Shown piece after piece: positions 4,426-64,000 of a DNA stretch of 64,000 nucleotides. The notes under the pieces are model-generated. The model saw only the letters and a program-made list of their open reading frames with translations, did no database searches and was not told where the DNA came from. The first letter of the stretch is position 1, and each line of letters opens with the position of its first letter. The translations under genes and the position numbers were made by a program. The DNA is taken from contig NC_043011.1 of the NCBI RefSeq assembly GCF_006345805.1, forward strand, positions 48,000,464 through 48,064,463, given 5' to 3'. The DNA is from Octopus sinensis (Eukaryota).

Positions 4426-4525
4426 NNNNNNNNNNNNNNNNNNNNNNNNNNNNNNNNNNNNNNNNNNNNNNNNNNNNNNNNNNNNNNNNNNNNNNNNNNN
4501 NNNNNNNNNNNNNNNNNNNNNNNNN
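4426..4525. other. Assembly gap (100 N)
   Basis: Exactly 100 N, typical of an unknown-size gap placeholder. Confidence 0.98.
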
Positions 4526-18585: not shown

Positions 18586-18965
18586 ACAGAGATTGCTCAT
18601 ACACACACAAACACATGCAGAAACACCCACACACACACTCACATATACACACTCACACACATATGTATATCATCATCTTCAACATTTTTATACCTACTTT
18701 CTATGCAAAGCTTTATTCAGTTGGATCACTGGTGTCTGCATCAGTTCTTATGGAAAGCCCACTGCCGTGGTCGACCTGTAATTTTTTGCTGTGGGTAGGT
18801 GCGCATGTTCAGAAATTAATTGCATACAAGTTTTGACTTTCTTTTGTTAACAAAATATGTGTATGTTCATTTGGGTGACCATTGCTCAAATTTCTTCAGT
18901 TAAAAATTCAAGCCGAAGGCTTATATGCCTCAATATTAGACCACTTTCTTTAGTCAATACACACA

Positions 18966-19745
18966 AAAGGAACTCAGCGACTTTGCCTCCATGAGGCCCA
19001 ATGCTCTAAAGGAACTCAGCCACTTTGCCTCCATGAGGCCCAATGCTCAAAAGGAACTCAGCCACTTTGCCTCCAGTAGGCCCAATGCTCAAAAGGAACT
19101 CAGCCACTTTGCCTCCAGGAGGCCCAATGCTCAAAGGGAACTCAGCCACTTTGCCTCCAGGAGGCCCAATACTCAAAAGGAACTCAGCCACTTTGCCTCC
19201 AGGAGGCCCAATGCTCAAAAGGAACTCAGCCACTTTGCCTCCAGGAGGCCCAATGCTCAAAAGGAACTCAGCCACTTTGCCTCCAGGAGGCCCAATGCTC
19301 AAAGGGAACTCAGCCACTTTGCCTCCAGGAGGCCCAATGCTCAAAAGGAACTCAGCCACTTTGCCTCCAGGAGGCCCAATGCTCAAAAGGAACTCAGCCA
19401 CTTTGCCTCCATGAGGCCCAATGCTCAAAAGGAACTCAGCCACTTTGCCTCCAGGAGGCCCAATGCTCAAAAGGAACTCAGCCACTTTGCCTCCAGGAGG
19501 CCCAATGCTCAAAAGGAACTCAACCACCTCACCTTCGTGAGGCTTGCTTGAAAGCAACTCACTACCTTGCCTCCACGAGGCCCATTCAAAAGGAACTCAG
19601 CCACCTCGCATCTGTGAGGCCCAACACTCAAAAGGATCTCAACCACTTTGCTTCCATGCAGCCCAGGAGCTTGGCCACTTTGTCACCACGAGGCTCAATG
19701 CTCAAAAGGAATTCAGCCACCTTACCTTCATGAGGCCAACACTCA
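18966..19745. repeat. 42-bp minisatellite, ~13 near-identical plus ~7 degenerate units
   Basis: AGGCCCAATGCTCAAAAGGAACTCAGCCACTTTGCCTCCAGG; homogeneous to ~19520. Confidence 0.97.
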
Positions 19746-20516: not shown

Positions 20517-21190
20517 TGAGTAAAGTAAATTTCCTTCCCAAGTCATGTAGACGGATAAGGTCCAGTTTCCAAATTCCATGATGTATATATTCTTATTTCA
20601 AGGGGCTAAACATAGTGGGGACAAACAAGGACAGACAAAGGGATTAAGTCGATTACATCAACCCCAGTGCATAACTGGTACTTAATTTATCAACCCCAAA
20701 AGGATGAAAGGCAAAGTCGACCTCGGCAGAATTTGAACTCAGAACATAATGGCAGATGAAATACCTATTTCTTTATTACCCACAAGGGGGTAAACACAGA
20801 GGGGACAAACAAGGACAGACATAGGTATTAAGTCGATTACATCGACCCCAGTGCGTAACTGGTACTTAATTTATCGACCCCGAAAGGATGAAAGGCAAAG
20901 TCGACCTCGGCAAAATTTGAACTCAGAACATAACGGCAGATGAAATACCGCTAAGAATTTCGCCCAGCATGCTAACATCAGTGCCAGCTCGCCATGGTGT
21001 ATATATTCTCCACCTGAACAGGACACCGGTCAGTTGCGGGATTATTCATTTTGGCCAGCTGAGCAAACTGAAGCAATATGAAAGGAAATGTTTTGCTCAA
21101 GAGCACAACATATTGCCCGATCCAGGAATTGAAGCCACAATCTTACTATCATGAATCCAACACCTCAACCACTAAGCCATGCACCTCTAC
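20517..21190 (-). mobile_element. SINE with an E-type head and a C2-like 3' module (E'), interrupted by a B dimer
   Basis: Head GTAGAGGTGCATGGCTTAGTGGTTGAGGTGTTGG; body GCAACTGACCGGTGTCCTGTTCAGGTGGAGAATATATAC; flanked by a ~13-bp TSD. Confidence 0.7.
20593..20993 (-). mobile_element. SINE family B dimer with 17-bp TSD
   Basis: CCATG(A/G)TGTATATATTC at 20576-20592 and 20992-21008; internal junction GAAATAC|CTATTTC near 20764. Confidence 0.9.
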
Positions 21191-26139: not shown

Positions 26140-26990
26140 AATCGATCAGAATCGAATCGATCAGGAATTGCGGATTTGCTACCAGTGCCGGTGGCATTTC
26201 GAAACTCTGCTTGTGAAGACCCATTGAGGCAAGTGAGGTCAGAATCGAAATCGATCAATGGAAATCGATCATGGAAAATTGCGGATGTGCTACCAGTGCC
26301 GGTGCTGTCGAAACTCTGCTTGTGAAGACCCATTGAGGCAAGTGAGGATCAGAATCGAAATCGATCAATCGAAATCGATCATGGAAATCGATCAATGGAA
26401 ATTGCGGATGTGCTACCAGTGCCGGTTGGCATGTCGAAACTCTGCTTGTGAAGACCCATTGAGGCAATGAGGATCAGAATCGAAATCGATCATGGAATCG
26501 ATCAATGAAATTGCAGATGTGGTTACCAGTGCCGGGGGCATGTCGAAACTCTGCTTGTGAAGACCCATTGAGGCAAGTGAGGATCAGAATCGAAATCGAT
26601 CAATGGAAATCGATCAATGAAATTGCAGATGTGTTACCAGTGCCGGTGGCATGTCGAAACTCTGCTTGTGAAGACCCATTGAGGCAAGTGAGGATCAGAA
26701 TCGGAAATCGATCAATGGAAATCGATCAATGGAAATTGCAGATGTGTTACCAGTGCCTGTTGGCATGTCGAAACTCTGCTTGTGAAGACCCTTGAGGCAA
26801 GTGAGGATCAGAATCGAAATCGATCAATGGAAATCAATCAATGGAAATTGCGGATGTGCCTACCAGTGCTGGTGGCATGTCGAAACTCTGCTTGTGAAGA
26901 CCATTGAGGCAAGTGAGGATCAGAATCGAAATCGATCAATGGAAATCGATCATGGAAATTGCAGATGGTTACCAGTGCCGGTGGCATGTA
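26140..26990. repeat. ~110-125-bp tandem repeat, ~8 units, with an AATCGATCAATGG subrepeat
   Basis: ACCAGTGCCGGTGGCATGTCGAAACTCTGCTTGTGAAGACCCATTGAGGCAAGTGAGGATCAGAATCGAAATCGATC. Confidence 0.95.
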
Positions 26991-32069: not shown

Positions 32070-32522
32070 AAAGGCAGCGAGCTGGCAGAAACGTTAGCAT
32101 GCTAGGGGAAATGCTTAGCAGTATTTCATCTGCCACTACGTTCTGAGTTCAAATTCTGCCAAGGCCGACTTTGCCTTTCATACTTTCGGGGTCTATAAAT
32201 TAAGTACAAGTTACACACTGGGGTCGATGTAATCGACTTAATCCTTTTGTCTGTCCTTGTTTGTCTCCTTTATGTTTAGCCCCTTGTGGGCAAAAAAGAA
32301 ATAAGAAACGTTAGCACGCTGGGCGAAATGCTTAGCGGTATTTTGTCTGTTGCTACGTTCTGAGGTCAAATTCCGCCAAGGTCGACTTTGGGTTTTATCC
32401 TTTCGGGGTTGATAAATTAAGTATCAGATGCATACTGGGGTCGATCTAATCAGCTTAATCCCTTTGTCTCTCCTTGTTTGTCCCCTCTATGTTTAGCCAT
32501 TTGTGGGCAATAAAGAAATAAA
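32070..32522 (+). mobile_element. SINE family B, tandem pair
   Basis: Unit 1 32070-32305; unit 2 starts AAACGTTAGCACG straight after the tail. Confidence 0.9.
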
Positions 32523-38883: not shown

Positions 38884-40565
38884 GCAGATTCATTAGCATA
38901 CTGGGTAAAATGTTTGGTGGTATTTCGTCTGTATTTATGTTTTGGGTTCAAATTCTGACAAAGGTTGACTTTGTCGTTCTTCCTTTCAGGGTCGATAAAA
39001 TAAAGTACCAATTGAGTACTGAGATCGATGTAATTGACTTAGCTCTCCCCCAAAATTGCTGCCCTCGTGCTAAAAATTTGAAACCAAGCACATCATGTAA
39101 GGTGGCAATATGGCAGATTCATTAGCATACTGGGTGAAATGTTTGGTGGCGTTTCGTCTGTATTTATGTTTTGGGTTCAAATTCTGACAAAGGTTGACTT
39201 TGTCGTTCTTCCTTTCGGGGTCGATAAAATAAAGTACCAATTGAGTACTAAGATCGATGTAATTGACTTAGCTCTCCCCCAAAATTGCTGGCCTCGTGCT
39301 AAAAATTTGAAACCAAGCACATCATGTAAGGTGGCAATATGGCAGATTCATTAGCATACAGGGTGAAATGTTTAGGGGCATTTCGTCTGTATTTATGTTT
39401 TGGGTTCAAATTCTGACAAAGGTTGACTTTGTTGTTCTTCCTTTCAGGGTTGATAAAATAAAGTACCAATTGAGTACTAAGATCGATGTAATTGACTTAG
39501 CTCTCCCCCAAAATTGCTGTCCTCGTGCTAAAAATCTGAAACCAAGCACATCATGTAAGGTGGCAATATGGCAGATTCATTAGCATACTTGGTGAAATGT
39601 TTAGGGGCTTTTCGTCTGTATTTATGTTTTGGGTTCAAATTCTGCAAAGGTTGACTTTGTCGTTCTTCCTTTCGGGATCAATAAAATAAAGTGCCAATTG
39701 AGTACTAAGATCGATGTAATTGACTTACCACCCCCCAAAAAAAAAAATTGCTGGCCTTGTGCTAAAAATTTGAAACTAATATTCTGAAATAGTATTCTAG
39801 ATGTTAACGAACTTATTAGAGAACGGATTGTGATAGCAATGTTAGACATCAGGTATTGTGTTTTGGGTTCATCAAATTCTGCAAAGGTTGACTTTGTCGT
39901 TCTTCCTTTCGGGGTCGATAAAATAAAAAGTACACCAATTGAGTACTAAGATCGATGTAATTGACTTACTCTCCCCCACCCCAAATTGCTGGCCTTGTGC
40001 TAAAAATTTGAAACTAATATTCTGAAATAGTATTCTAGATGTTAACGAACTTATTAGAGAACGGATTGTGATAGCAATGTTAGCATCAGGTGTATTGTGT
40101 TTTGGGTTCAAATTCTGCAAAGGTTGACTTTGTCGTTCTTCCTTTCGGGGTCGATAAAATAAAGTACCAATTGAGTACTAAGATCGATGTAATTGACTTA
40201 CCTCTCCCCCACCCCAAATTGCTGGCCTTGTGCTAAAAATTTGAAACTAATATTCTGAAATAGTATTCTAGATGTTAACGAACTTATTAGAGAACGGATT
40301 GTGATAGCAATGTTAGACATCAGGTGTATTGTGTTTTGGGTTCAAATTCTGCAAAGGTTGACTTTGTCGTTCTTCCTTTCGGGGTCGATAAAATAAAGTA
40401 CCAATTGAGTACTAAGATCGATGTAATTGACTTACCTCCCCCACCCCAAATTGCTGGCCTTGTGCTAAAAATTTGAAACTAGTATTCTGAAATAGTATTA
40501 TCAGATGTTAACGAACTTATTAGAGAACGGATTGTGATGGCAATGTTAGACATCAGGTGTATTGT
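38884..40565 (+). repeat. SINE B2-derived tandem arrays: 229-bp units then ~235-bp units
   Basis: GCAGATTCATTAGC at 38884, 39113, 39342, 39571; TTTTGGGTTC at 39627, 39861, 40100, 40334. Confidence 0.95.
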
Positions 40566-40779
40566 ATGCAGACTGCTTGAATAAGTGCACATGCAGATGG
40601 ATGCACACAAACCTGCATCAAGTTAAAGGAAATATTGCACTGATGTTATAAAGAAAGATGCTGCATCATATAACAGTGTTTGTCTGCAAAGTGGATGCCA
40701 GAACATGTGATCTTCTCCAAGACACTATTGTTAAGACTTTTTTCTTTTTTGGCTTTAGATAGATACAATTATTATCATT

Positions 40780-43064: not shown

Positions 43065-43298
43065 CATTTTTAAAAATCTTTTATCTGTTGCTCATTATAT
43101 TTATCATTATTATCGTTTACTGTGGCCATGCTGGAGCATGACACAGCTGTGTGGTAAGAAGCTTGCTTCCCAACCACATGGTTCCGGGTTCAGTCCCACT
43201 GTGGGGATCTTTGGGTAAGTGTCTTCTACTTTAGCCTCGGGCCGACCAGAGCCTTGTGAGTTGATTTAGTAGATGGAAACTGAAAGAAGCCTGTTATG

Positions 43299-43341
<43 letters not shown>

Positions 43342-43977
43342 CAAATATATATATATATATATACTGTATGTATGTATTTACGTGTGTGGTTGTCTGGGTT
43401 TGTCCCCCACCTCCATCGCTTGACAACTGTTGTTGGTGTGTTTACATCCCCACAAACTTAGCTGCTCAGCAGAAGAGACTGATAGAATAAGCACCAGGCT
43501 TACAAAGTATAAGTCCAGGAGTCGATTTCTTTAACGAAAAGGCAGTAGGTCCAGCATGGCCACGTTCAAAGGATTAAAACACAAGAAAGAGTAAAATGAA
43601 TTACATCTATTTTATATATTATTAAGCCTGGTACTTATCTATTGGTCTCTCTTGCCAAACTGCTAAGTTACAGGGACATAAACACACTACCACTGGTTGT
43701 GAAGCAGTGGTGGGGACAAACACACCCACTCACATATACACACAGGGCTTCTTTCAGTTTCTTATTTATTTACTGCCCACAAGGGGTTACACAGAGGGGA
43801 CAAACAGGGACAGACAAACGGATTAAGTCGATTATATCGACCCCTGTGCATAACTGGTACTTATTTAATCGATCCCGAAAGGATGAAAGGCAAAGTCGAC
43901 CTCGGCGGAATTTCAACTCAGAACATAGCGGGAGACAAAATACCTATTTCCTTACTACCCACAAGGGACTAAACATA
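43065..43977. repeat. Left copy of a ~910-bp direct repeat (SINE A +, SINE A 3' part -, SINE B -)
   Basis: Near-identical to 57714-58624, including private SINE mutations (GTGGGGATCTTTGGGTAAG, GAGTTGATTTAGTAG). Confidence 0.95.
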
Positions 43978-46900
43978 AAATACGTAAATAACGTATATAA
44001 TGTAAATAATGTAAATAATGTAAATAATGTAAATAATGTAAATAATGTAAATAACGTATATAATGTAAATAATGTAAATAATGTAAATAATGTATATAAT
44101 GTAAATAATGTAAATAATGTATATAATATAAATAATGTAAAATAATGTAAATAATGTAAATAATGTAAATAACGTAAATAATGTAAATAACGTAAATAAC
44201 GTAAATAATGTAAATAATGTAAATAACGTAAATAACGTAAATAATGTAAATAATGTAAATATGTAAATAACGTATATAATGTAAATAATGTAAATAACGT
44301 ATATAACGTAAATAACGTAAATAACGTAAATAATGTATATAACGTAAATAACGTAAATAATGTATATAATGTAAATAACGTAAATAATGTAAATAATGTA
44401 AATAATGTAAATAATGTAAATAACGTAAATAATGTAAATAATGTAAATAATGTAAATAACGTAAATAACGTAAATAATGTAAATAATGTAAATAATGTAA
44501 ATAACGTAAATAACGTAAATAATGTATATAATGTAAATAATGTAAATAACGTAAATAATGTAAATAACGTATATAATGTAAATAATGTAAATAATGTATA
44601 TAATGTAAATAATGTAAATAATGTAAATAATGTATATAATGTAAATAATGTATATAATGTAAATAATGTAAATAATGTAAATAATGTAAATAATGTAAAT
44701 AATGCATATAATGTAAATAATGTAAATAATGTTAATAATGTAAATAATGTAAATAATGTAAATAATGCTAATAATGTTAATAATGTAAATAATGTAAATA
44801 ATGTTAATAATGTAAATAATGTAAATAATGTTAATAATGTAAATAATGTAAATAATGTAAATAATGTTAATAATGTAAATAATGTAAATAATGTAAATAA
44901 CGTAAATAATGTATATAATGTAAATAATGTAAATAACGTAAATAATGTAAATAATGTAAATAACGTATATAATGTAAATAATGTAAATAATGTATATAAT
45001 GTAAATAATGTAAATAATGTATATAATGTAAATAATGTAAATAATGTAAATAATGTAAATAATGTAAATAATGTATATAATGTAAATAATGTAAATAATG
45101 TAAATAATGTAAATAATGTAAATAATGTAAATAATGTAAATAATGTATATAATGTAAATAATGTAAATAATGTATATAATGTAAATAATGTAAATAATGT
45201 AAATAATGTATATAATGTAAATAATGTATATAATGTAAATAATGTAAATAATGTATATAATGTAAATAATGTTAATAATGTAAATAACGTAAATAATGTA
45301 AATAACGTAAATAATGTAAATAATGTAAATAATGTAAATAATGTAAATAATGTAAATAATGTAAATAATGTAAATAACGTAAATAATGTAAATAATGTAA
45401 ATAATGTAAATAATGTAAATAACGTAAATAACGTAAATAATGTATATAATGTAAATAATGTAAATAACGTAAATAATGTAAATAACGTATATAATGTAAA
45501 TAACGTAAATAATGTAAATAATGTAAATAATGTAAATAATGTAAATAATGTATATAATGTAAATAATGTAAATAATGTAAATAATGTATATAATGTAAAT
45601 AATGTATATAATGTAAATAATGTAAATAATGTAAATTATGTAAATAATGTAAATAATGTAAATAATGTAAATAATGTAAATAACGTAAATAATGTAAATA
45701 ATGTAAATAATGTAAATAATGTAAATAATGTAAATAACGTAGATAATGTAAATAACGTAAATAATGTAAATAATGTATATAATATAAATAATGTAAATAA
45801 TGTAAATAATGTAAATAATGTAAATAATGTATATAATGTATATAATGTATATAATGTAAATAATGTATATAATGTAAATAATGTAAATAATGTAAATAAC
45901 GTAAATAACGTAAATAACGTATATAATGTAAATAATGTAAATAACGTAAATAACGTATATAATGTAAATAACGTATATAACGTAAATAACGTATATAATG
46001 TAAATAACGTATATAATGTAAATAACGTAAATAACGTAAATAATGTAAATAATGTAAATAATGTAAATAATGTAAATAACGTAAATAATGTAAATAATGT
46101 AAATAATGTAAATAATGTATATAATGTAAATAATGTATATAATGTAAATAATGTAAATAATGTAAATAATGTAAATTATGTAAATAATGTATATAATGTA
46201 AATAATGTAAATAACGTAAATAATGTATATAATGTAAATAATGTATATAACGTAAATAATGTAAATAATGTAAATAATGTAAATAACGTAAATAATGTAA
46301 ATAATGTAAATAACGTAAATAATGTAAATAATGTAAATAACGTAAATAACGTATATAATGTAAATAATGTATATAATGTAAATAATGTATATAATGTAAA
46401 TAATGTATATAATGTAAATAATGTAAATAATGTAAATAATGTATATAATGTAAATAATGTAAATAACGTAAATAACGTATATAATATAAATAATGTAAAT
46501 AATGTAAATAATGTATATAATGTAAATAATGTAAATAATGTATATAATGTAAATAATGTAAATAATGTAAATAACGTATATAATGTAAATAATGTAAATA
46601 ACGTAAATAATGTAAATAATGTAAATAATGTAAATAATGTAAATAATGTATATAATGTAAATAATATAAATAATGTAAATAATGTAAATAATGTAAATAA
46701 TGTAAATAATGTATATAATGTATATATTGTAAATAATGTAAATAATATAAATAATGTAAATAATGTAAATAATGTAAATAACGTAAATGACGTAAATAAT
46801 GTAAATAATGTATATAACGTAAATAACGTAAACAACGTAAATAATGTAAATAATGTAAATAACGTAAATAACGTAAATAACGTAAATAATGTAAATAACG

Positions 46901-49900
46901 TAAATAATGTAAATAACGTAAATAATGTAAATAATGTAAATAATGCTAATAATGTAAATAATGTAAATAACGGAAATAACGTAAATAATGTAAATAATGT
47001 AAATAATGTAAATAATGTAAATAATGTATATAATGTATATAATGTAAATAACGTATATAATGTAAATAATGTATATAATATAAATAATGTATATAATGTA
47101 AATAATGTAAATAATGTAAATAATGTAAATAATGTATATAATGTAAATAATGTAAATAATGTAAATAATGTAAATGACGTAAATAATGTAAATAATGTAA
47201 ATAATGTAAATAACGTAAATAATGTAAATAATGTAAATGATGTAAATAACGTAAATAATGTAAATAATGTAAATAATGTAAATAACGTAAATAATGTAAA
47301 TAACGTAAATAACGTAAATAATGTAAATAATGTAAATAACGTAAATAACGTAAATAATGTAAATAATGTAAATAATGTAAATAACGTATATAATGTAAAT
47401 AATGTAAATAGCGTATATAACGTAAATAACGTAAATAATGTATATAACGTAAATAACGTAAATAATGTATATAATGTAAATAACGTAAATAATGTAAATA
47501 ATGTAAATAATGTAAATAACGTAAATAATGTAAATAATGTAAATAATGTAAATAATGTGAATAACGTAAATAATGTAAATAATGTAAATAATGTAAATAA
47601 TGTAAATAACGTAAATAACGTAAATAATGTATATAATGTAAATAATGTAAATAACGCAAATAATGTAAATAACGTATATAATGTAAATAATGTAAATAAT
47701 GTAAATAATGTAAATAATGTAAATAATGTAAATAATGTATATAATGTAAATAATGTAAATAATGTAAATAATGTAAATAATATAAATAAAGTAAATAATG
47801 TAAATAATGTAAATAATGTAAATAATGTAAATAATGTAAATAATGTATATAATGTAAATAATGTAAATAATGTAAATAATGTATATAATGTAAATAATGT
47901 ATATAATGTAGATAATGTGAATAATGTAAATAATGTAAATAATGTAAATAACGTAAATAATGTAAATAATGTAAATAATGTAAATAATGTAAATAACGTA
48001 AATAATGTAAATAACGTAAATAATGTAAATAATGTATATAATATAAATATTGTAAATAATGTAAATAATGTAAATAATGTAAATAATGTAAATAATGTAT
48101 ATAATGTAAATAAGTAACTAATGTAAATAATGTATATAAGTATATAACGTAAATAATGTAAATAATGTAAATAATGTAAATAATGTAAATAATGTAAATA
48201 ATGTATAATGTATATAATGTAAATAATGTATATAATGTAAATAATGTAAATAATGTAAATAACGTAAATAACGTAAATAACGTATATAATGTAAATAATG
48301 TAAATAACGTAAATAACGTATATAATGTAAATAACGTATATAACGTAAATAACGTATATAACGTAAATAACGTATATAATGTAAATAACGTATATAATGT
48401 AAATAACGTAAATAACGTAAATAATGTAAATAATGTAAATAATGTAAATAATGTAAATAACGTAAATAATGTAAATAATGTAAATAATGTAAATAATGTA
48501 AATAATGTAAATAATGTAAATAATGTATATAATGTAAATAATGTAAATAACGTAAATAATGTAAATAATGTAAATAATGTAAATAATGTAAATAATGTAT
48601 ATAATGTAAATAATGTAAATAATGTAAATAACGTATATAATGTAAATAATGTAAATAACGTAAATAACGTATATAATGTAAATAACGTATATACGTAAAT
48701 AACGTATATAACGTAAATAACGTATATAATGTAAATAACGTATATAATGTAAATAACGTAAATAACGTAAATAATGTAAATAATGTAAAATAGTAAAAAT
48801 AATGTAAATAACGTAAATAATGTAAATAATGTAAATAATGTAAATAATGTAAATAATGTAAATAATGTAAATATGTAAATAATGTATATAATGTAAATAA
48901 TGTAAATAACGTAAATAATGTAAATAATGTAAATAATGTAAATAATGTAAATAAGTATATATAATGTAAATAATGTAAATAATGTAAATAACGTATATAA
49001 TGTAAATAATGTAAATAACGTAAATAATGTAATATAATGTAAATAATGTAAAATGTATGTAAATAATGTATATAATGTAAATAATATAAATAATGTAAAT
49101 AATGTAAATAATGTAAATAATGTAAATAATGTATATAATGTAAATAATGTAAATAATGTAAATAATGTAAATAATGTAAATAATGTAAATAATGTAAATA
49201 ATGTATATAATGTAAATAATGTAAATAACGTAAATAATGTAAATAATGTAAATAATGTAAATAATGTAAATAATGTATATAATGTAAATAATGTAAATAA
49301 TGTAAATAACGTATATAATGTAAATAATGTAAATAACGTAAATAATGTATATAATGTAAATAATGTAAATAATGTAAATAATGTATATAATGTAAATAAT
49401 ATAAATAATGTAAATAATGTAAATAATGTAAATAATGTATATAATGTATATAATGTAAATAATGTAAATAATATAAATAATGTAAATAATGTAAATAACG
49501 TAAATGACGTAAATAATATAAATAATGTATATAACGTAAATAACGTAAATAATGTAAATAATGTAAATAATGTAAATAATGTAAATAATGTAAATAATGT
49601 AAATAACGTAAATAACGTAAATAACGTAAATAATGTAAATAACGTAAATAATGTAAATAACGTAAATAATGTATATAATGTAAATAATGTATATAATGTA
49701 AATAATGTATATAATATAAATAATGTATATAATGTAAATAATGTAAATAATGTAAATAATGTAAATAATGTATATAATGTAAATAATGTAAATAATGTAA
49801 ATAATGTAAATAATGTAAATGATGTAAATAACGTAAATAATGTAAATAACGTAAATAATGTATATAACGTAAATAATGTAAATAACGTAAATAATGTATA

Positions 49901-52900
49901 TATCGTAAATAATGTAAATAACGTAAATAATGTATATAACGTAAATAATGTAAATAACGTAAATAATGTAAATAATGTAAATGATGTATATAATGTAAAT
50001 AATGTAAATAATGTAAATAATGTAAATAATGTAAATAATGTAAATAATGTAAATAATGTATATAATGTAAATAATGTAAATAACGTAAATAATGTAAATA
50101 ACGTAAATAATGTAAATAACGTAAATAATGTATATAACGTAAATAATGTAAATAACGTAAATAATGTAAATAACGTAAATAATGTAAATAACGTAAATAA
50201 TGTAAATAATGTAAATAATGCATATAATGTAAATAATGTAAATAATGTAAATAATGTAAATAATGTAAATAATGTAAATAATGTATATAATGTAAATAAT
50301 GTAAATAATGTAAATAATGTAAATAATGTAAATAATGTAAATAATGTATATAAAGTAAATAATGTAAATAATGTAAATAATGTATATAATGTAAATAATG
50401 TATATAATGTAAATAATGTATATAATGTAAATAATGTAAATAATGTATATAAAGTAAATAATGTAAATAATGTAAATAATGTATATAATGTAAATAATGT
50501 ATATAATGTAAATAATGTAAATAATGTAAATAATGTATATAATGTAAATAATGTAAATAATGTAAATAATGTATATAATGTAAATAATGTAAATAATGTA
50601 AATAATGTAAATAATGTAAATGTAAATAATGTAAATAATGTATATAATGTAAATAATGTAAATAATGTAAATAATGTAAATAACGTAAATAATGTAAATA
50701 ATGTATATAATGTAAATAACGTAAATAATGTAAATAATGTAAATAATGTATATAATGTAAATAATGTAAATAATGTAAATAATGTATATAAAGTAAATAA
50801 TGTAAATAATGTAAATAATGTATATAATGTAAATAATGTAAATAATGTAAATAATGTAAATTACGTAAATAATGTAAATAACGTAAATAACGTAAATAAT
50901 GTAAATAATGTAAATAATGTAAATAATGTATATAATGTAAATAATGTAAATAATGTAAATAATGTATATAATGTAAATAATGTATATAATGTAAATAATG
51001 TAAATAATGTAAATAATGTATATAATGTAAATAATGTTAATAATGTAAATAACGTAAATAATGTAAATAACGTAAATAATGTAAATAATGTAAATAATGT
51101 AAATAACGTAAATAACGTAAATAATGTAAATAATGTAAATAACGTATATAATGTAAATAATGGAAATAATGTAAATAATGTAAATAATGTAAATAATGTA
51201 TATAATGTAAATAATGTAAATAATGTAAATAATGTATATAATGTATATAATGTAAATAACGTAAATAATGTAAATAATGTAAATAATGTAAATAACGTAA
51301 ATAATGTAAATAATGTAAATAATGTAAATAATGTATATAATGTAAATAATGTAAATAATGTAAATAATTATGTAATGTAAATAATGTAAATAATGTATAT
51401 AATATAAATAATGTAAATAACGTAAATAATGTAAATAATGTAAATAATGTAAATAATGTAAATAATGTAAATAATGTATATAATGTAAATAATGTAAATA
51501 ACGTAAATAATGTAAATAATGTAAATAATGTAAATAACGTAAATAATGTAAATAACGTAAATAAGGTAAATAACGTAAATAACGTAAATAACGTATATAA
51601 CGTATATAATGTATATAATGTAAATAACGTAAATAATGTAAATAATGTAAATAATGTAAATAACGTAAATAATGTAAATAATGTAAATAATGTAAATAAC
51701 GTATATAATGTAAATAATGTAAATAATGTAAATAATGTAAATAATGTAAATAATGTAAATAACGTATATAATGTAAATAATGTAAATAAAGTAAATAATG
51801 TATATAATGTAAATAATGTAAATAATGTATATAATATAAATAATGTAAATAATGTAAATAATGTAAATAATGTAAATAACGTAAATAATGTAAATAACGT
51901 AAATAACGTAAATAATGTAAATAATGTAAATAACGTAAATAACGTAAATAATGTAAATAATGTAAATAATGTAAATAACGTATATAATGTAAATAAAGTA
52001 AATAACGTATATAACGTAAATAACGTAAATAACGTAAATAATGTATATAACGTAAATAACGTAAATAATGTATATAATGTAAATAACGTAAATAATGTAA
52101 ATAATGTAAATAATGTAAATAACGTAAATAACGTAAATAATATAAATAACGTAAATAACGTAAATAACGTAAATAATGTAAATAATGTAAATAATGTAAA
52201 TAACGTAAATAATGTATATAATGTAAATAATGTAAATAACGTAAATAATGTAAATAACGTATATAATGTAAATAATGTAAATAATGTAAATAATGTAAAT
52301 AATGTAAATACTGTAAATAATGTAAATAATGTAAATAATGTAAATAATGTATATAATGTAAATAATGTAAATATGTATATAATGTAAATAATGTAAAATG
52401 TAAATAATGTAAATAATGTAAATAATGTAAATAATGTAAATAATGTAAATAACGTAAATAACGTAAATAATGTAAATAATGTAAATAATGTAAATAATAA
52501 CGTAAATAATGTATATAATGTAAATAATGTAAATAACGTAAATAATGTAAATAACGTAAATAATGTAAATAACGTATATAACGTAAATAACGTAAATAAT
52601 GTATATAATGTAAATAATGTAAATAATGTAAATAATGTATATAATGTAAATAATGTAAATAATGTAAATAATGTAAATAATGTAAATAACGTAATAGTAA
52701 ATAATGTAAATAATGTAAATAACGTAAATAATGTAAATAACGTAAATAATGTAAATAACGTATATAATGTAAATAATGTAAATAATGTAAATAATGTATA
52801 TAATGTAAATAATGTATAATGCAAATAATGTAAATAATGTAAATATGTAAATAATGCAAATAATGTAAATAATGTAAATAATGTAAATAATGTATATAAT

Positions 52901-55900
52901 GTAAATAATGTAAATAATGTAAAATAATGATATAATGTAAATAATGCAAATAATGTAAATAATGTAAATAATGTAAATAATGTAAATAATGTAAATAATG
53001 TAAATAACGTAAAAAATGTAAATAATGTAAATAATGTAAATAACGTAAAAAATGTAAAATGTAAATAATGTAAATAACGTATATAATGTAAATAATGTAA
53101 ATAACGTAAATAACGTATATAACGTAAATAATGTAAATAACGTATATAACGTATATAACGTAAATAATGTAAATAATGTGAATAATGTAAATAATGTAAA
53201 TAACGTAAATAATGTAAATAATGTAAATAATGTAAATAATGTAAATAATGTAAATAATGTATATAATGTAAATAATGTAAATAATGTAAATAATGTATAT
53301 AATGTAAATAATGCAAATAATGTAAATAATGTAAATAATGTAAATAATGTAAATAATGTAAATAATGTAAATAACGTAAAAAATGTAAATAATGTAAATA
53401 TATGTAAATAACGTAAAAAATGTAATAATGTAAATAATGTAAATAACGTATATAATGTAAATAATGTAAATAACGTAAATAACGTATATAAGTAAATAAT
53501 GTAAATAACGTATATAACGTATATAACGTAAATAATGTAAATAATGTGAATAATGTAAATAATGTAAATAACGTAAATAATGTAAATAATGTAAATAATG
53601 TAAATAATGTAAATAATGTATATAATGTAAATAATGTAAATAATGTAAATAATGTATATAATGTTAATGTAAATAATGTAAATAATGTATATAATGTAAA
53701 TAATGTAAATAATGTAAATAATGTATATAATGTAAATAATGTAAATAATGTAAATAATGTAAATAATGTAAATAATGTATATAATGTAAATAATGTAAAA
53801 TAATGAAAAAACGTAAATAACGTATATAACGTAAATAATGTAAATAACGTATATAACGTATATAACGTAGATAATGTAAAATAATGTAAATAACGTATAT
53901 AATGTAAATAATGTAAATAACGTAAATAACGTATATAACGTAAATAATGTAAATAACGTATATAACGTATATAACGTAAATAATGTAAATAATGTGAATA
54001 ATGTAAATAATGTAAATAACGTAAATAATGTAAATAATGTAATAAATGTAATAATGTAAATAATGTAAATAATGTATATAATGTAAATAATGTAAATAAT
54101 GTAAATAATGTATATAATGTAAATAATGCAAATAATGTAAATAATGTAAATAATGTAAATAATGTAAATAATGTAAATAATGTAAATAACGTAAAAAATG
54201 TAAATAATGTAAATATATGTAAATAACGTAAAAAATGTAATAATGTAAATAATGTAAATAACGTATATAATGTAAATAATGTAAATAACGTAAATAACGT
54301 ATATAAGTAAATAATGTAAATAACGTATATAACGTATATAACGTAAATAATGTAAATAATGTGAATAATGTAAATAATGTAAATAACGTAAATAATGTAA
54401 ATAATGTAAATAATGTAAATAATGTAAATAATGTATATAATGTAAATAATGTAAATAATGTAAATAATGTATATAATGTTAATGTAAATAATGTAAATAA
54501 TGTATATAATGTAAATAATGTAAATAATGTAAATAATGTATATAATGTAAATAATGTAAATAATGTAAATAATGTAAATAATGTAAATAATGTATATAAT
54601 GTAAATAATGTAAATAATGAAAATAACGTAAATAACGTATATAACGTAAATAATGTAAATAACGTATATAACGTATATAACGTAGATAATGTAAATAATG
54701 TAAATAATGTAAATAATGTAAATAACGTAAATAATGTAAATAACGTAAAAAATGTATATAACGTAAATAATGTAAATAACGTATATAATGTAAATAACGT
54801 AAATAACGTAAATAACGTATATAACGTAAATAATGTAAATAATGTAAATAATGTAAATAATGTATATAATGTAAATAATGTATATAATGTATATAATATA
54901 AATAATGTAAATAAGTATATAATGTAAATAATGTAAATAAAGTAAGTAAATAATGTATATAATGTAAATAATGTAAATAATATATATAATATAAATAATG
55001 TAAATAATGTAAATAATGTAAATAATGTAAATAACGTAAAATAACGAAATAACGTAAATAACGTAAATAATGTAAATAATGTAAATAACGTAAATAACGT
55101 AAATAATGTAAATAATGTAAATAATGTAAATAACGTATATAATGTAAATAAAGTAAATAACGTATATAACGTAAATAACGTAAATAACGTAAATAATGTA
55201 TATAACGTAAATAACGTAAATAATGTATATAATGTAAATAACGTAAATAATGTAAATAATGTAAATAATGTAAATAACGTAAATAACGTAAATAATATAA
55301 AACGTAAATAACGTAAATAACGTAAATAATGTAAATAATGTAAATAATGTAAATAACGTAAATAATGTATATAATGTAAATAATGTAAATAACGTAAATA
55401 ATGTAAATAACGTATATAATGTAAATAATGTAAATAATGTAAATAATGTAAATAATGTAAATACTGTAAATAATGTAAATAATGTATATAATGTATATAA
55501 TGTATATAATGTAAATAATGTAAATAATGTATATAATGTAAATAATGTAAATAATGTAAATAATGTATATAATGTAAATAATGTAAATAATGTATATAAT
55601 GTAAATAATGTAAATAATGTAAATAATGTAAATAATGTAAATAATGTAAATAATGTAAATAACGTAAATAACGTAAATAATGTAAATAATGTAAATAATG
55701 TAAATAACGTAAATAATGTATATAATGTAAATAATGTAAATAACGTAAATAATGTAAATAACGTAAATAATGTAAATAACGTATATAACGTAAATAACGT
55801 AAATAATGTATATAATGTAAATAATGTAAATAATGTAAATAATGTATATAATGTAAATAATGTAAATAATGTAAATAATGTAAATAATGTAAATAACGTA

Positions 55901-57703
55901 AATATTGTAAATAATGTAAATAATGTAAATAACGTAAATAATGTAAATAACGTAAATAATGTAAATAACGTATATAATGTAAATAATGTAAATAATGTAA
56001 ATAATGTATATAATGTAAATAATGTAAATAATGCAAATAATGTAAATAATGTAAATAATGTAAATAATGCAAATAATGTAAATAATGTAAATAATGTAAA
56101 TAATGTATATAATGTAAATAATGTAAATAATGTAAATAATGTATATAATGTAAATAATGCAAATAATGTAAATAATGTAAATAATGTAAATAATGTAAAT
56201 AATGTAAATAATGTAAATAACGTAAAAAATGTAAATAATGTAAATAATGTAAATAACGTAAAAAATGTAAATAATGTAAATAATGTAAATAACGTATATA
56301 ATGTAAATAATGTAAATAACGTAAATAACGTATATAACGTAAATAATGTAAATAACGTATATAACGTATATAACGTAAATAATGTAAATAATGTGAATAA
56401 TGTAAATAATGTAAATAACGTAAATAATGTAAATAATGTAAATAATGTAAATAATGTAAATAATGTATATAATGTAAATAATGTAAATAATGTAAATAAT
56501 GTATATAATGTAAATAATGTAAATAATGTATATAATGTAAATAATGTAAATAATGTAAATAATGTATATAATGTAAATAATGTAAATAATGTAAATAATG
56601 TAAATAATGTAAATAATGTATATAATGTAAATAATGTAAATAATGAAAATAACGTAAATAACGTATATAACGTAAATAATGTAAATAACGTATATAACGT
56701 ATATAACGTAGATAATGTAAATAATGTAAATAATGTAAATAATGTAAATAACGTAAATAATGTAAATAACGTAAAAAATGTATATAACGTAAATAATGTA
56801 AATAACGTATATAATGTAAATAACGTAAATAACGTAAATAACGTATATAACGTAAATAATGTAAATAATGTAAATAATGTAAATAATGTATATAATGTAA
56901 ATAATGTATATAATGTATATAATATAAATAATGTAAATAACGTATATAATGTAAATAATGTAAATAATGTAAATAATGTATATAATGTAAATAATGTATA
57001 TAATGTATATAATGTATATAATGTAAATAATGTATATAATGTAAATAATGTATATAATGTAAATAACGTAAATAATGTAAATAACGTATATAATGTAAAT
57101 AACGTAAATAATGTAAATAATGTAAATAACGTAAATAATGTAAATAACGTAAATAATGTAAATAACGTATATAATGTAAATAATGTAAATAATGTAAATA
57201 ATGTAAATAATGTAAATAATGTAAATGATGTAAATAATGTAAATAATGTAAATAATGTAAATAATGTAAATAATGTAAATAACGTAAATAATGTATATAA
57301 TGTAAATAATGTATATAATGTAAATAATGTATATAATGTAAATAATGTATATAATGTAAATAATGTAAATAATGTAAATAATGTATATAATGTAAATAAT
57401 GTAAATAATGTAAATAATGTATATAATGTAAATAATGTAAATATTGTAAATAACGTAAATAACGTAAATAATGTAAATAACGTAAATAACGTAAATAATG
57501 TAAATAACGTAAATAACGTATATAACGTAAATAATGTAAATAATGTAAATAATGTAAATAACGTATATAATGTAAATAATGTAAATAATGTATATAACGT
57601 AAATAATGTAAATAATGTATATAATGTAAATAATGTAAATAATGTAAATAACGTAAATAATGTAAATAATGTAAATAATGTAAATAATGTAAATAATGTA
57701 AAT
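43978..57703. repeat. 9-bp satellite (AATAATGTA)n, ~13.7 kb, ~1,500 units; main variants AATAACGTA and TATAATGTA
   Basis: Direct; uninterrupted by any other element. Confidence 0.99.
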
Positions 57704-57713
57704 TTACATATTA

Positions 57714-57943
57714 CATTTTTAAAAATCTTTTATCTGTTGCTCATTATATTTATCATTATTATCGTTTACTGTGGCCATGCTGGAGCATGACACAGCTGTG
57801 TGGTAAGAAGCTTGCTTCCCAACCACATGGTTCCGGGTTCAGTCCCACTGTGGGGATCTTTGGGTAAGTGTCTTCTACTTTAGCCTCGGGCCGACCAGAG
57901 CCTTGTGAGTTGATTTAGTAGATGGAAACTGAAAGAAGCCTGT

Positions 57944-57983
<40 letters not shown>

Positions 57984-58624
57984 CAAATATATATATATAT
58001 ATATATACATGTATGTATGTATTTACGTGTGTGTTTGTGTCTGTGTTTGTCCCCCACCTCCATCGCTTGACAACTGTTGTTGGTGTGTTTACATCCCCAC
58101 AACTTAGCTGCTCAGCAGAAGAGACTGATAGAATAAGCACCAGGCTTACAAAGTATAAGTCCAGGAGTCGATTTCTTTAACGAAAAGGCAGTGTTCCAGC
58201 ATGGCCACGTTCAAAGGATTAAAACACAAGAAAGAGTAAAATGAATTACATCTATTTTTATATATTATTAAGCCTGGTACTTATTCTATTGGTCTCTCTT
58301 GCCAAACTGCTAAGTTACAGGGACATAAACACACTACCACTGGTTGTGAAGCAGTGGTGGGGACAAACACACCCACTCACATATACACACAGGGCTTCTT
58401 TCAGTTTCTTATTTATTTACTGCCCACAAGGGGTTACACAGAGGGGACAAACAGGGACAGACAAACGGATTAAGTCGATTATATCGACCCCTGTGCATAA
58501 CTGGTACTTATTTAACCGATCCCGAAAGGATGAAAGGCAAAGTCGACCTCGGCGGAATTTGAACTCAGAACATAGCGGGAGACAAAATACCTATTTCCTT
58601 ACTACCCACAAGGGACTAAACATA
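57714..58624. repeat. Right copy of the ~910-bp direct repeat
   Basis: CATTTTTAAAAATC...GGGACTAAACATA; continues into the rest of the SINE B dimer. Confidence 0.95.
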
Positions 58625-59066
58625 GAGAGGACAAACAAGGACAGACAAACGGATTAAGTCGATTATATCGACCCCAGTGCGTAACTGGTACTTATTTAAT
58701 CGACCCCGAAAGGATGAAAGGCAAAGTCGACCTCGGCGGAATTTGAACTCAGAACGTAGCGGCAGACGAAATACTATTAAGCATTTCGCAAAGCATTTCG
58801 CCTGGCGTGCTAACGTTTCTGCTAGCTCGCCACATTGAAACCACAATCTTACGTTCATGAGTCCAACACCCTAACTACTAAGCCATGCACTAACGTTTCT
58901 ACCAGCTCGCCATCTTCTTTCAGTTTCTGACTACTAAGTTCACTCACTAGGTTTTGGTCTGTTTGAAGCTACAGTAGAAGACACGTGCCCAAGGTGCCAC
59001 ACAGTGGGGCTAGACCAAAAACAATGTACTTGGAAAGTAAAGTTCTTACCACTACAGTCATGCCTG
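58270..59066 (-). mobile_element. Older SINE family A copy split by a B dimer
   Basis: 3' part 58270-58408, 5' part 58914-59066; TSD CTTCTTTCAGTTTC at 58395-58408 and 58914-58927. Confidence 0.82.
58409..58913 (-). mobile_element. SINE family B dimer containing a ~58-bp E-type head fragment
   Basis: Two B bodies joined at AAAATAC|CTATTTC; E head at 58832-58890 between duplicated TAACGTTTCT..AGCTCGCC. Confidence 0.85.
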
Positions 59067-59163
59067 AAGAAAAAATAAGAACTTTAAGCTTTAAGATGAA
59101 AGCACTAATGTGAGGTACATATCTATGAATTTTTTTTTTTTTCTTTCTACAATATACTTGCAG

Positions 59164-59285
59164 CAATTTCTTGAGAGCTTGGTATTCACCATTGGTACTA
59201 AATTGGTTCTTAGAAATTACTCTGTATGATTTTTTGGTCTATGAGAGACAGCAGTCAAATTTTCCTCATATAAGTCACAAATAAG
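59164..59285 (+). other. Candidate spliced exon (probably non-coding or terminal)
   Basis: CTAAT branch-like motif, long T-tract and TTGCAG acceptor; AAG|GTAAGT donor; best frame ends in TAA just before the donor. Confidence 0.3.
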
Positions 59286-60206
59286 GTAAGTAGACTAAGA
59301 TATGTCATAAAATAAGACAGGATGTCACAGTTGAGTGTGGGATGTCTGTGATCATTAGTCAGACAGAACTGGGCTGGTCGTAAGCAAAGCAACAATAAGG
59401 AAAAATAATGATGAGGAGAAGGAGGAGGAGGAGGAAGAGGGGGAAGAAAAGGAGAACAACAGAATGGATAGAATAAAGGCAAAGAACGAAAAGAATTATA
59501 TTCCAAACAAATAAATGGAAGTATTGGAAGAATCGTTGATTCCCTGAAAGTAAATGTCTGTGAATGAAGGAAATGGTAAACACGGCTGGTAGGAGACATG
59601 AGAGAAAAACAACCAATTATGGATTGGGTGTACTACAGTGTGTATAAGAGCATGTGTGTGGGTGTATGCGTTTGTGTGTGTGTGTGTGTGTGTATAATAA
59701 AAGCTGTGTATATATATGTGTGTATGTGTTTATATATATATACTTACATATCTAAATAACACACACATACATACACATGTATGTATGTGTGGGTGTATGT
59801 GTGCCTGCATCCCCGCATGTATGTGTGTGTGTGCATGCTCGCATGTGTGTGTGCCTGTGTGTGTGAGTGTGTGTGTGTGTGTGCAAAATCCAGAACATTG
59901 AGTGATAGTCTATATTTCAAAATTCATTTCCTATCATGTGTAAGCAATTTAGAGGGTTTTGTCATGGAAACCTGAATTTTTGTTTTTCTTTTGTTGCCAT
60001 CATTGACATGTAAAGAAATAAAGGTATTTCTTAACGCCATCATTACCATCATCATCATCATCATCATCATTTTAATCATGAATCTTATCCTCTCTGCTTG
60101 ATAAATTCCACCCTCATTGTCAGCATCATCGTCATCATTACCATCTCCATCTTCACTCATTACAAGCAGCAGTGTCACCACAACAAAAATAGCAACAACA
60201 ACAGCA

Positions 60207-63076: not shown

Positions 63077-63769
63077 ATAAACTCTGGTGGATATATGTGT
63101 GTGCATGTGTTTAATTGGAGGTGCATGTATATGTTTGTGTGTGTGTGTGTGTGTATGTGTGTATGGACAAGTGTGTGTAGATATATAAAAAAAAAACATA
63201 GCTAAAATGAAGAATATTAAGCGGTAAGGAGGAGACAAATAAATAAAATACAGATAGTGGAAAAAAACAGAAATATAATAAAATGAAACAACAACTCTAT
63301 TTAGAGAATGTATACAAAGAAATGTGTACAATAGGAATAATTATGCCCAGAACAGAAGAGAATCTAACATTTTGATATACCTTTTATCAAGAACAAATAG
63401 AAATGAAAGAAATAAAATGCCAAAAATAATTCAAAGTAAATATTTGGTCGTGTTTTGATTAGATGGAAATCACCCCGTATTTTGTAATTTGAATTGTGAT
63501 GTTCATGCCTTCCATAGTGTCAAGTGAAAATGTAACCATCCTCTATGGAAGCTTTCTCAAACCTAAACTGTGACGCTAAAGTATCATTGGCAATCCTTAA
63601 TACATTACAATGAATCATAAAGATTAGCTTCAGGCTTTCCTAAAGAGGCTGCAAAAGAAACAACAACAACAAAATTACATTCTGCTTGATGAACTAATGA
63701 TGAGCTTTGACACAATAACCCAACCTGCTAAAAGTTGCATCTAAGTACCTCTTAAGTGATATTCTTATT

Positions 63770-64000
63770 TCTTTATTGCTCACAAGGGGTTAAACATAGA
63801 GGGGACAAATCAGGACAGACAAAGGGATTAAGGCGATTACATCGACACCAGTGCGTAACTGGTACTTAATTTATCGACCTCGAAAGGATGAAAGGCAAAG
63901 TCAACCTCAGTGGAATTTGAACTCAGACTGTAATGGCAGACGAATACCTATTCCTTTACTGCCTACAAGGGGCTACACACAGAGGAGACAAACAAGGACA
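63770..64000 (-). mobile_element. SINE family B dimer running off the window end
   Basis: B body, then junction CGAATAC|CTATTCC near 63948 and a second tail. Confidence 0.88.

Follow-up and report, generated by a model that had tools for sequence, protein, structure and literature searches.

The window, a 64,000-nt stretch of DNA whose positions are numbered from its first letter, carries a 9-mer satellite array between two direct copies of one duplicated host locus. We tentatively favor a young, polymorphic "cycle of templated insertion" (MMBIR/FoSTeS type) as the event that pasted the satellite in, with a confidence somewhat short of even. The array insertion itself, by any mechanism, is probably real. 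How satellites arrive at new loci is an open question, and the arguments mostly rest on junctions that are old and eroded. A real insertion here would be a fresh event in which the empty allele persists and both junctions are undamaged, and its donor and mechanism could be traced. It is a single locus in noncoding DNA, of a kind already described, that involves no element and affects no gene, and it carries a sizable risk of being an assembly error.

Structure of the array and of the duplicated locus

The DNA around the array is AT-rich, SINE- and microsatellite-rich animal sequence. The single run of N's in the window is a 100-N scaffold gap at 4426 to 4525, far from the array. The features discussed below are as follows.

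43065..43977, plus strand: left copy of the locus, with SINE pieces and a TA microsatellite; its first 234 bp show no difference from the right copy
43972..43984, plus strand: left array junction; the locus breaks off 31 bp into unit 2 of the SINE dimer and is followed by one irregular first unit
43978..57703, plus strand: 9-mer satellite array of about 1,527 units with two common variable positions
53235..54614, plus strand: region of likely assembler stutter, in which a 565-bp block has an exact second copy at offset 815
57696..57717, plus strand: right array junction, with a palindrome, a 10-nt insert, and a 4-nt microhomology
57714..58624, plus strand: right copy of the locus, SINE-rich and continuing into the right flank

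TRF called a period-9 array at 43984 to 57703 (1526.7 copies, 90% matches), preceded by one irregular unit from 43978, and a degenerate five-unit pattern of the 9-mer matched 788 times, compared to 0 in 100 shuffles. In the alignment, the flanking copies of 913 and 911 bp differ at 20 of 918 columns (97.8% identity), and they are the sole duplication of more than 600 bp at 93% identity or higher in the window outside the array. TRF and the alignment thus confirmed the arrangement proposed in an earlier sequence-only reading. Common descent was judged from private SINE letters, i.e., letters of the right copy that are absent from all other SINE copies of the window, at 601 testable positions. 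Twenty-two of the 24 private letters are also found in the left copy, indicating that both copies derive from one locus and that they are one duplicated host locus, as that reading had held. The right copy runs through a dimer of a 184-bp SINE (58410 to 58778) into the right flank, and the shared part ends about 31 bp into the second unit, in agreement with the roughly 30 bp first given. The flanking repeats are therefore a host locus and not element ends. The geometry is LTR-like, as had been remarked, but the likeness goes no further, the repeats being a host locus cut in the middle of a SINE.

The array had also been described as free of SINEs in surroundings that carry one every 1 to 2 kb. 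A comparison of the flank repeats with the array gave no matches inside it, and the flanks hold 40 interspersed-repeat blocks in 48.5 kb, a mean spacing of 1.2 kb, so the description stands. The SINE-free array agrees with youth, but this is weak evidence because arrays turn over. None of the seven other tandem arrays within the window has duplicated flanks. These include a 42-bp minisatellite at 18964 to 19656 (16.7 copies, about 50% GC, 97% neighbor identity, open in several frames) and a 112-bp tandem array at 26155 to 26989 (7.4 copies, with internal 14-bp subrepeats). The 184-bp SINE often occurs as head-to-tail dimers (20599 to 20949, 32087 to 32521, 58410 to 58778, and 63762 to 64000). 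The seven tandem units of about 229 to 237 bp at 38930 to 40568 form a SINE-derived minisatellite, each unit of which includes part of this SINE family in inverted orientation.

The differences between the copies amount to about 11 events plus microsatellite length changes. This corrects the "handful of sites" of the earlier reading; the differences are unevenly spread and lie almost all in the left copy. Polarized against the other SINE copies and a diverged short-read run (X19, which gives the right-copy state over 58128 to 58294, where its contig is gap-free relative to the right copy), nine changes are assigned to the left copy as derived and one to the right (P = 0.02); with clusters merged, the ratio is 7 to 1 (P = 0.07). 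The left-copy changes are mostly one-base indels or copies of a neighboring base, and they are either consensus errors or products of error-prone synthesis. Among the matches listed, the right copy is identical letter for letter to the short-read contigs of two further runs, X1 and X18.

At the right end of the array, a perfect 14-bp palindrome occupies 57696 to 57709. The 10 nt between the array and the right copy (57704 to 57713) correspond to the opposite strand of the satellite with two deletions and are followed by a 4-nt microhomology with the locus. These 10 extra bases are a correction to the earlier reading. Together with the first four locus bases, the insert makes a 14-nt piece that is two edits from the inverted satellite and six from the forward one. 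By odds that were computed after the feature was seen, the chance of six free bases completing the palindrome is 0.0002 to 0.0006, and that of the whole inverted piece is 0.007 to 0.019. The fold energy of this junction is weakly unusual (z = -2.0, 10 of 200 shuffles). No inverted 9-mer units were found in any kilobase of the array, and the inverted piece is confined to about 14 nt at its right end. The fold-back insert and the microhomology are a signature of the repair or template-switch type, which the earlier reading had overlooked. In the accessible part of PMC13031928, a snap-back insert followed by a short microhomology is ascribed to polymerase theta joining. The left junction shows a weak microhomology, with five of the last six locus bases fitting the satellite phase when read by eye, and the duplicated locus begins at a T5/A5 step.

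The interior of the array is less regular than its edges. Of 34 phase breaks, two lie near the left junction, none in 44270 to 48100, 32 in 48100 to 55301, and none beyond. The break-free edges measure 3.8 kb (17 breaks expected at the rate of the center) and 2.4 kb (11 expected), which suggests that several reads may have been anchored on each side. Nested internal duplications occur at offsets of 0.8 to 10.9 kb with scores of 22 to 62, compared to a shuffled maximum of 11, and further copies of the first 615 bp of the array lie at +3.1, +7.7, and +10.9 kb and have 6 to 16 mismatches, versus 32 to 38 at control places. The two exact copies of the 565-bp block share four identical phase-breaking indels, whereas a third copy (56081 to 56640) lacks these indels and has no substitution difference. 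The repeat at offset 815 is likely one noisy consensus written twice, i.e., assembler stutter, and 13.7 kb is therefore likely an unreliable array length, inflated by at least 815 bp. The nested duplications, of which at least one was probably made by the assembler, leave the proposal that the satellite moved as a 13.7-kb unit unsupported.

Stop codons are nearly absent from all frames of the minus strand of 43978 to 57713, where open stretches reach up to 2,495 codons. This is due to the letters of the unit and could mislead gene callers. A coding repeat was considered and rejected: the long open frames follow from the unit composition, and no single frame renders the common variants synonymous.

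Alleles and satellite abundance in short-read runs

Four of the 24 listed runs (X1, X18, X19, and X21) were aligned to 57630 to 59600, a query that contains the right copy together with the final 74 bases of the array. X1 and X18 may or may not come from the assembled individual, and X19 is a 4%-diverged outgroup run. The raw reads of X21 gave four alignments with 3% of the run read and were uninformative. In each of X1, X18, and X19, the match of one contig begins precisely at 57714 and is preceded by 370, 370, and 93 other bases, respectively. These extra bases are probably the left flank; the 370 bases before 43065 are the end of a microsatellite. The junction of left flank and locus seen in these contigs exists on both alleles. 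The entering contig shows no break at the point where the array junction would join it, and neither contigs nor loose ends across either array junction were found among the matches listed (24 pieces out of about 375,000 and 18 loose ends out of 1,654). In simplified graphs, a weak branch that leads into a very deep satellite node may be lost to pruning. Logan contigs are such simplified graphs and lose variants (bioRxiv 10.1101/2024.07.30.605881, available in part), and an unbroken contig is therefore compatible with a branch.

In X1, the depth was 47.3 on the entering contig, 49.2 and 72 inside the repeat, and 48.2 and 46.5 in the right flank. The contig at 72 matches a heterozygous expectation of 71, and two of the three X1 contigs are at single-copy depth. 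In X18, the depth was 46.7 and 41.9 inside the repeat, the latter on the contig that reaches 72 in X1, and 36 and 41.4 outside it. X19 had 8.5 inside the repeat and 7.05 outside. The repeat is thus at about 1.0 to 1.5 times single-copy depth and not at 2, indicating that the duplication is not fixed. The depth check set out in advance by the sequence-only reading gave a mixed outcome, but the allele without the duplication that it had postulated is supported. The word shares of X1 and X18 are equal (0.72) and uninformative, left-copy-specific words making up 13.7% and microsatellite words 23% of the query.

Genotypes were compared under a Poisson model with a shared contamination term, which assumes 150-bp reads and no extra dispersion; X19 was excluded for its low depth. 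Also excluded was the contig at 58273 to 58334, which carries three differences in all three runs and probably belongs to a different SINE locus. With an X18/X1 depth ratio of 0.63, it illustrates the noise of short SINE contigs. A homozygous duplication was rejected in both X1 and X18, the two runs that match best, by at least 7.5 log units, and for X18 an empty genotype was favored over a heterozygous one by 1 to 4.7 log units. At all three X18 baselines, the best likelihood was obtained with X1 heterozygous with real left-copy variants and X18 empty. A model with both runs empty and shared SINE contamination was 0.5 to 1.7 log units worse than the best model, and heterozygosity with identical copies, the left-copy changes being errors, was about 3 to 4 log units worse than empty. 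The X1 depth therefore fits either a heterozygous or an empty genotype.

The normalized summed depth on the array bin was 9,371, 9,531, and 9,287 in X1, X18, and X19, respectively, so the normalized abundance of the satellite in X1 is not higher than in the other runs. As a rough lower bound from depth, the satellite takes up about 31 kb per haploid genome in each of the three runs, more than twice what the array at 43978 to 57703 could give; in X1, no more than 196,000 of the observed 444,000 could come from this array. The satellite is abundant in all three runs, indicating that the family predates the split from the species of X19 and has arrays elsewhere. A donor satellite thus exists elsewhere in the genome, the specific donor locus being putative. 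Within the window, no 9-mer tail was found elsewhere. Literature that covered few subscription papers and excluded the supplement of PMC13282606 contained no description of the 9-mer, the locus, or an octopus satellite of this kind. Look-alike 9-mer runs in 20 metagenome and 7 viral loci were rejected as unrelated, as they span only 54 to 117 bp and do not match the repeat copy. They lie in AT-rich contigs and are probably Asn-rich coding repeats.

Origin of the array

In the favored cycle of templated insertion, a broken or stalled DNA end would leave the locus at 43977 and switch template onto a satellite array elsewhere. After long copying of this donor, a snap-back of about 14 nt would create an end able to pair at 43065, and synthesis would resume 0.91 kb behind the departure point, so that the locus would be copied again. 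The steps may have followed in this order, through MMBIR or polymerase theta-type joining, with some share of the array gained at once and some grown in place, and both array junctions would then exist in real molecules. Three features of the assembly agree with such an event: the host segment is directly duplicated on both sides of the insert, the satellite of the insert is present elsewhere in all three runs, and templated bases and microhomology mark the right junction, those of the left being weak. Since it is not fixed, the array-bearing allele, if real, is young, and it is likely heterozygous or polymorphic. The template switching suggested by the sequence-only reading thus gains a donor, a junction signature, and a duplication-free allele, but by depth the duplication is seen in no run.

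An assembly artifact has an appreciable probability, well below even, and the misjoin first named as a serious alternative stays one. A single-copy locus would have been falsely duplicated and its left copy left unpolished, because of one noisy or chimeric long read or a small number of them, or because of a misjoin across a satellite array that belongs elsewhere. The single-copy depth in X18 (41.9 and 46.7 versus 36 to 41.4) and in two of the three X1 contigs, including the one at 49.2, together with the rejection of a homozygous duplication, is what an artifact would produce. The lack of either array junction among the matches listed, the unbroken entering contig, the error-like, one-sided left-copy differences that start only past the first 234 bp, the two phase breaks just inside the left junction, and the 815-bp stutter, with which the assembler likely invented sequence, also count against a real insertion. 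However, a misjoin needs molecules with both junctions 0.91 kb apart on one locus, and the fold-back insert is repair-like and would not normally be written by overlap assembly. The clean array edges, the depth of 72 found in X1 only, and the room that simplified contigs leave for a branch further weigh against it.

The other routes to a real insertion are all improbable. Target-primed insertion by a LINE would start from nicks about 0.91 kb apart, with reverse transcription of a satellite transcript or of the element's own short tandem tail, followed by expansion. The T5/A5 step at the repeat start resembles the motif of an APE-type nick site, and L2-type LINEs have short tandem tails that the 9-mer unit resembles. 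Several LINE clades were recently active in Octopus vulgaris (PMC13282606, in part), and Dualen insertions give target duplications with a median of 900 bp (PMC9977147, in part), but Dualen is absent from the active clades listed in the accessible part of PMC13282606. The insert has no LINE or SINE body and no poly(A), the window has no 9-mer tail elsewhere, the use of both satellite strands at the right junction suits a DNA donor, and kilobase internal duplications are unlike slippage on a 9-nt template. Nothing on target sites was found in the available portion of PMC9115989, and a literature search with one phrase returned no report of long target duplications by RTE elements. It is about equally doubtful that the 9-mer is a mobile family of the octopus lineage spread by a dedicated route, this locus being a still-polymorphic insertion; a LINE enzyme might, for example, nick about 0.9 kb apart and extend the repeat in telomerase style. 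Kilobase target duplications and a common fold-back end would then be expected at many arrays. Marginally less probable is a 0.91-kb tandem duplication that caught a short satellite seed, from which the array grew in place by slippage and unequal exchange. The nested duplications and the recurring first 615 bp would suit such growth, and small templated insertions are known to accompany tandem duplications (PMC13031928, in part). However, an allele that is not fixed leaves little time, the divergence among the internal paralogues equals or exceeds that between the two flanking copies, and no seed was found in the flanks. Least probable is that a circle carrying satellite DNA reintegrated at a staggered break. 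Such circles have been documented and suggested as a way for satellites to spread (PMC7403614, in part), and the recurrence of about 3.1 kb could represent rolling-circle copies, but it is irregular (3.1, 4.6, and 3.2 kb) and diverged. Without re-replication, this route, which the earlier reading had also offered, leaves the 0.91 kb of duplicated target unexplained.

Comparison with known systems

LTR and TRIM elements have long direct repeats around an internal region, and foldback transposons and Tetris elements carry tandem repeats inside a mobile unit. In contrast to LTR/TRIM elements, the octopus repeats are a host locus cut in mid-SINE without element ends. An LTR/TRIM element was rejected, since the right copy continues through the SINE dimer and X1, X18, and the diverged X19 each have one copy. 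A foldback transposon was likewise rejected, since the array is in one orientation except for about 14 nt and has no long inverted arms. Between the duplications, there is satellite only, with neither a non-LTR retrotransposon body nor poly(A), and no flank repeat matches the array.

Dualen LINEs of Chlamydomonas are similar in the duplication of about 900 bp that flanks the insert, but their insert is LINE sequence (PMC9977147, as far as accessible), whereas the octopus insert is without retroelement sequence. Polymerase theta-type tandem duplications share the microhomology and the short templated insert at the duplication junction; in the accessible part of PMC13031928, however, the inserts are small, whereas here kilobases of satellite intervene. 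The Rsp-like satellite insertions of Drosophila simulans, for which FoSTeS/MMBIR or circles have been proposed, are alike in forming new satellite clusters at new loci with junction microhomology and some duplicated flank. They differ in that their duplication is 32 bp and their targets are existing 1.688 satellite (PMC7403614, in part), compared to a 0.91-kb nonsatellite locus and a 9-bp unit here. The PCAWG cycles of templated insertions come from human tumors and have junction-read and copy-number support (PMC7025897, in part), whereas our case comes from an invertebrate assembly, with a satellite template and putative junctions. Both would have a distant template inserted, a host segment re-replicated on return, and two junctions, and for the tumor cycles replication-based template switching has been proposed in the accessible part of that study.
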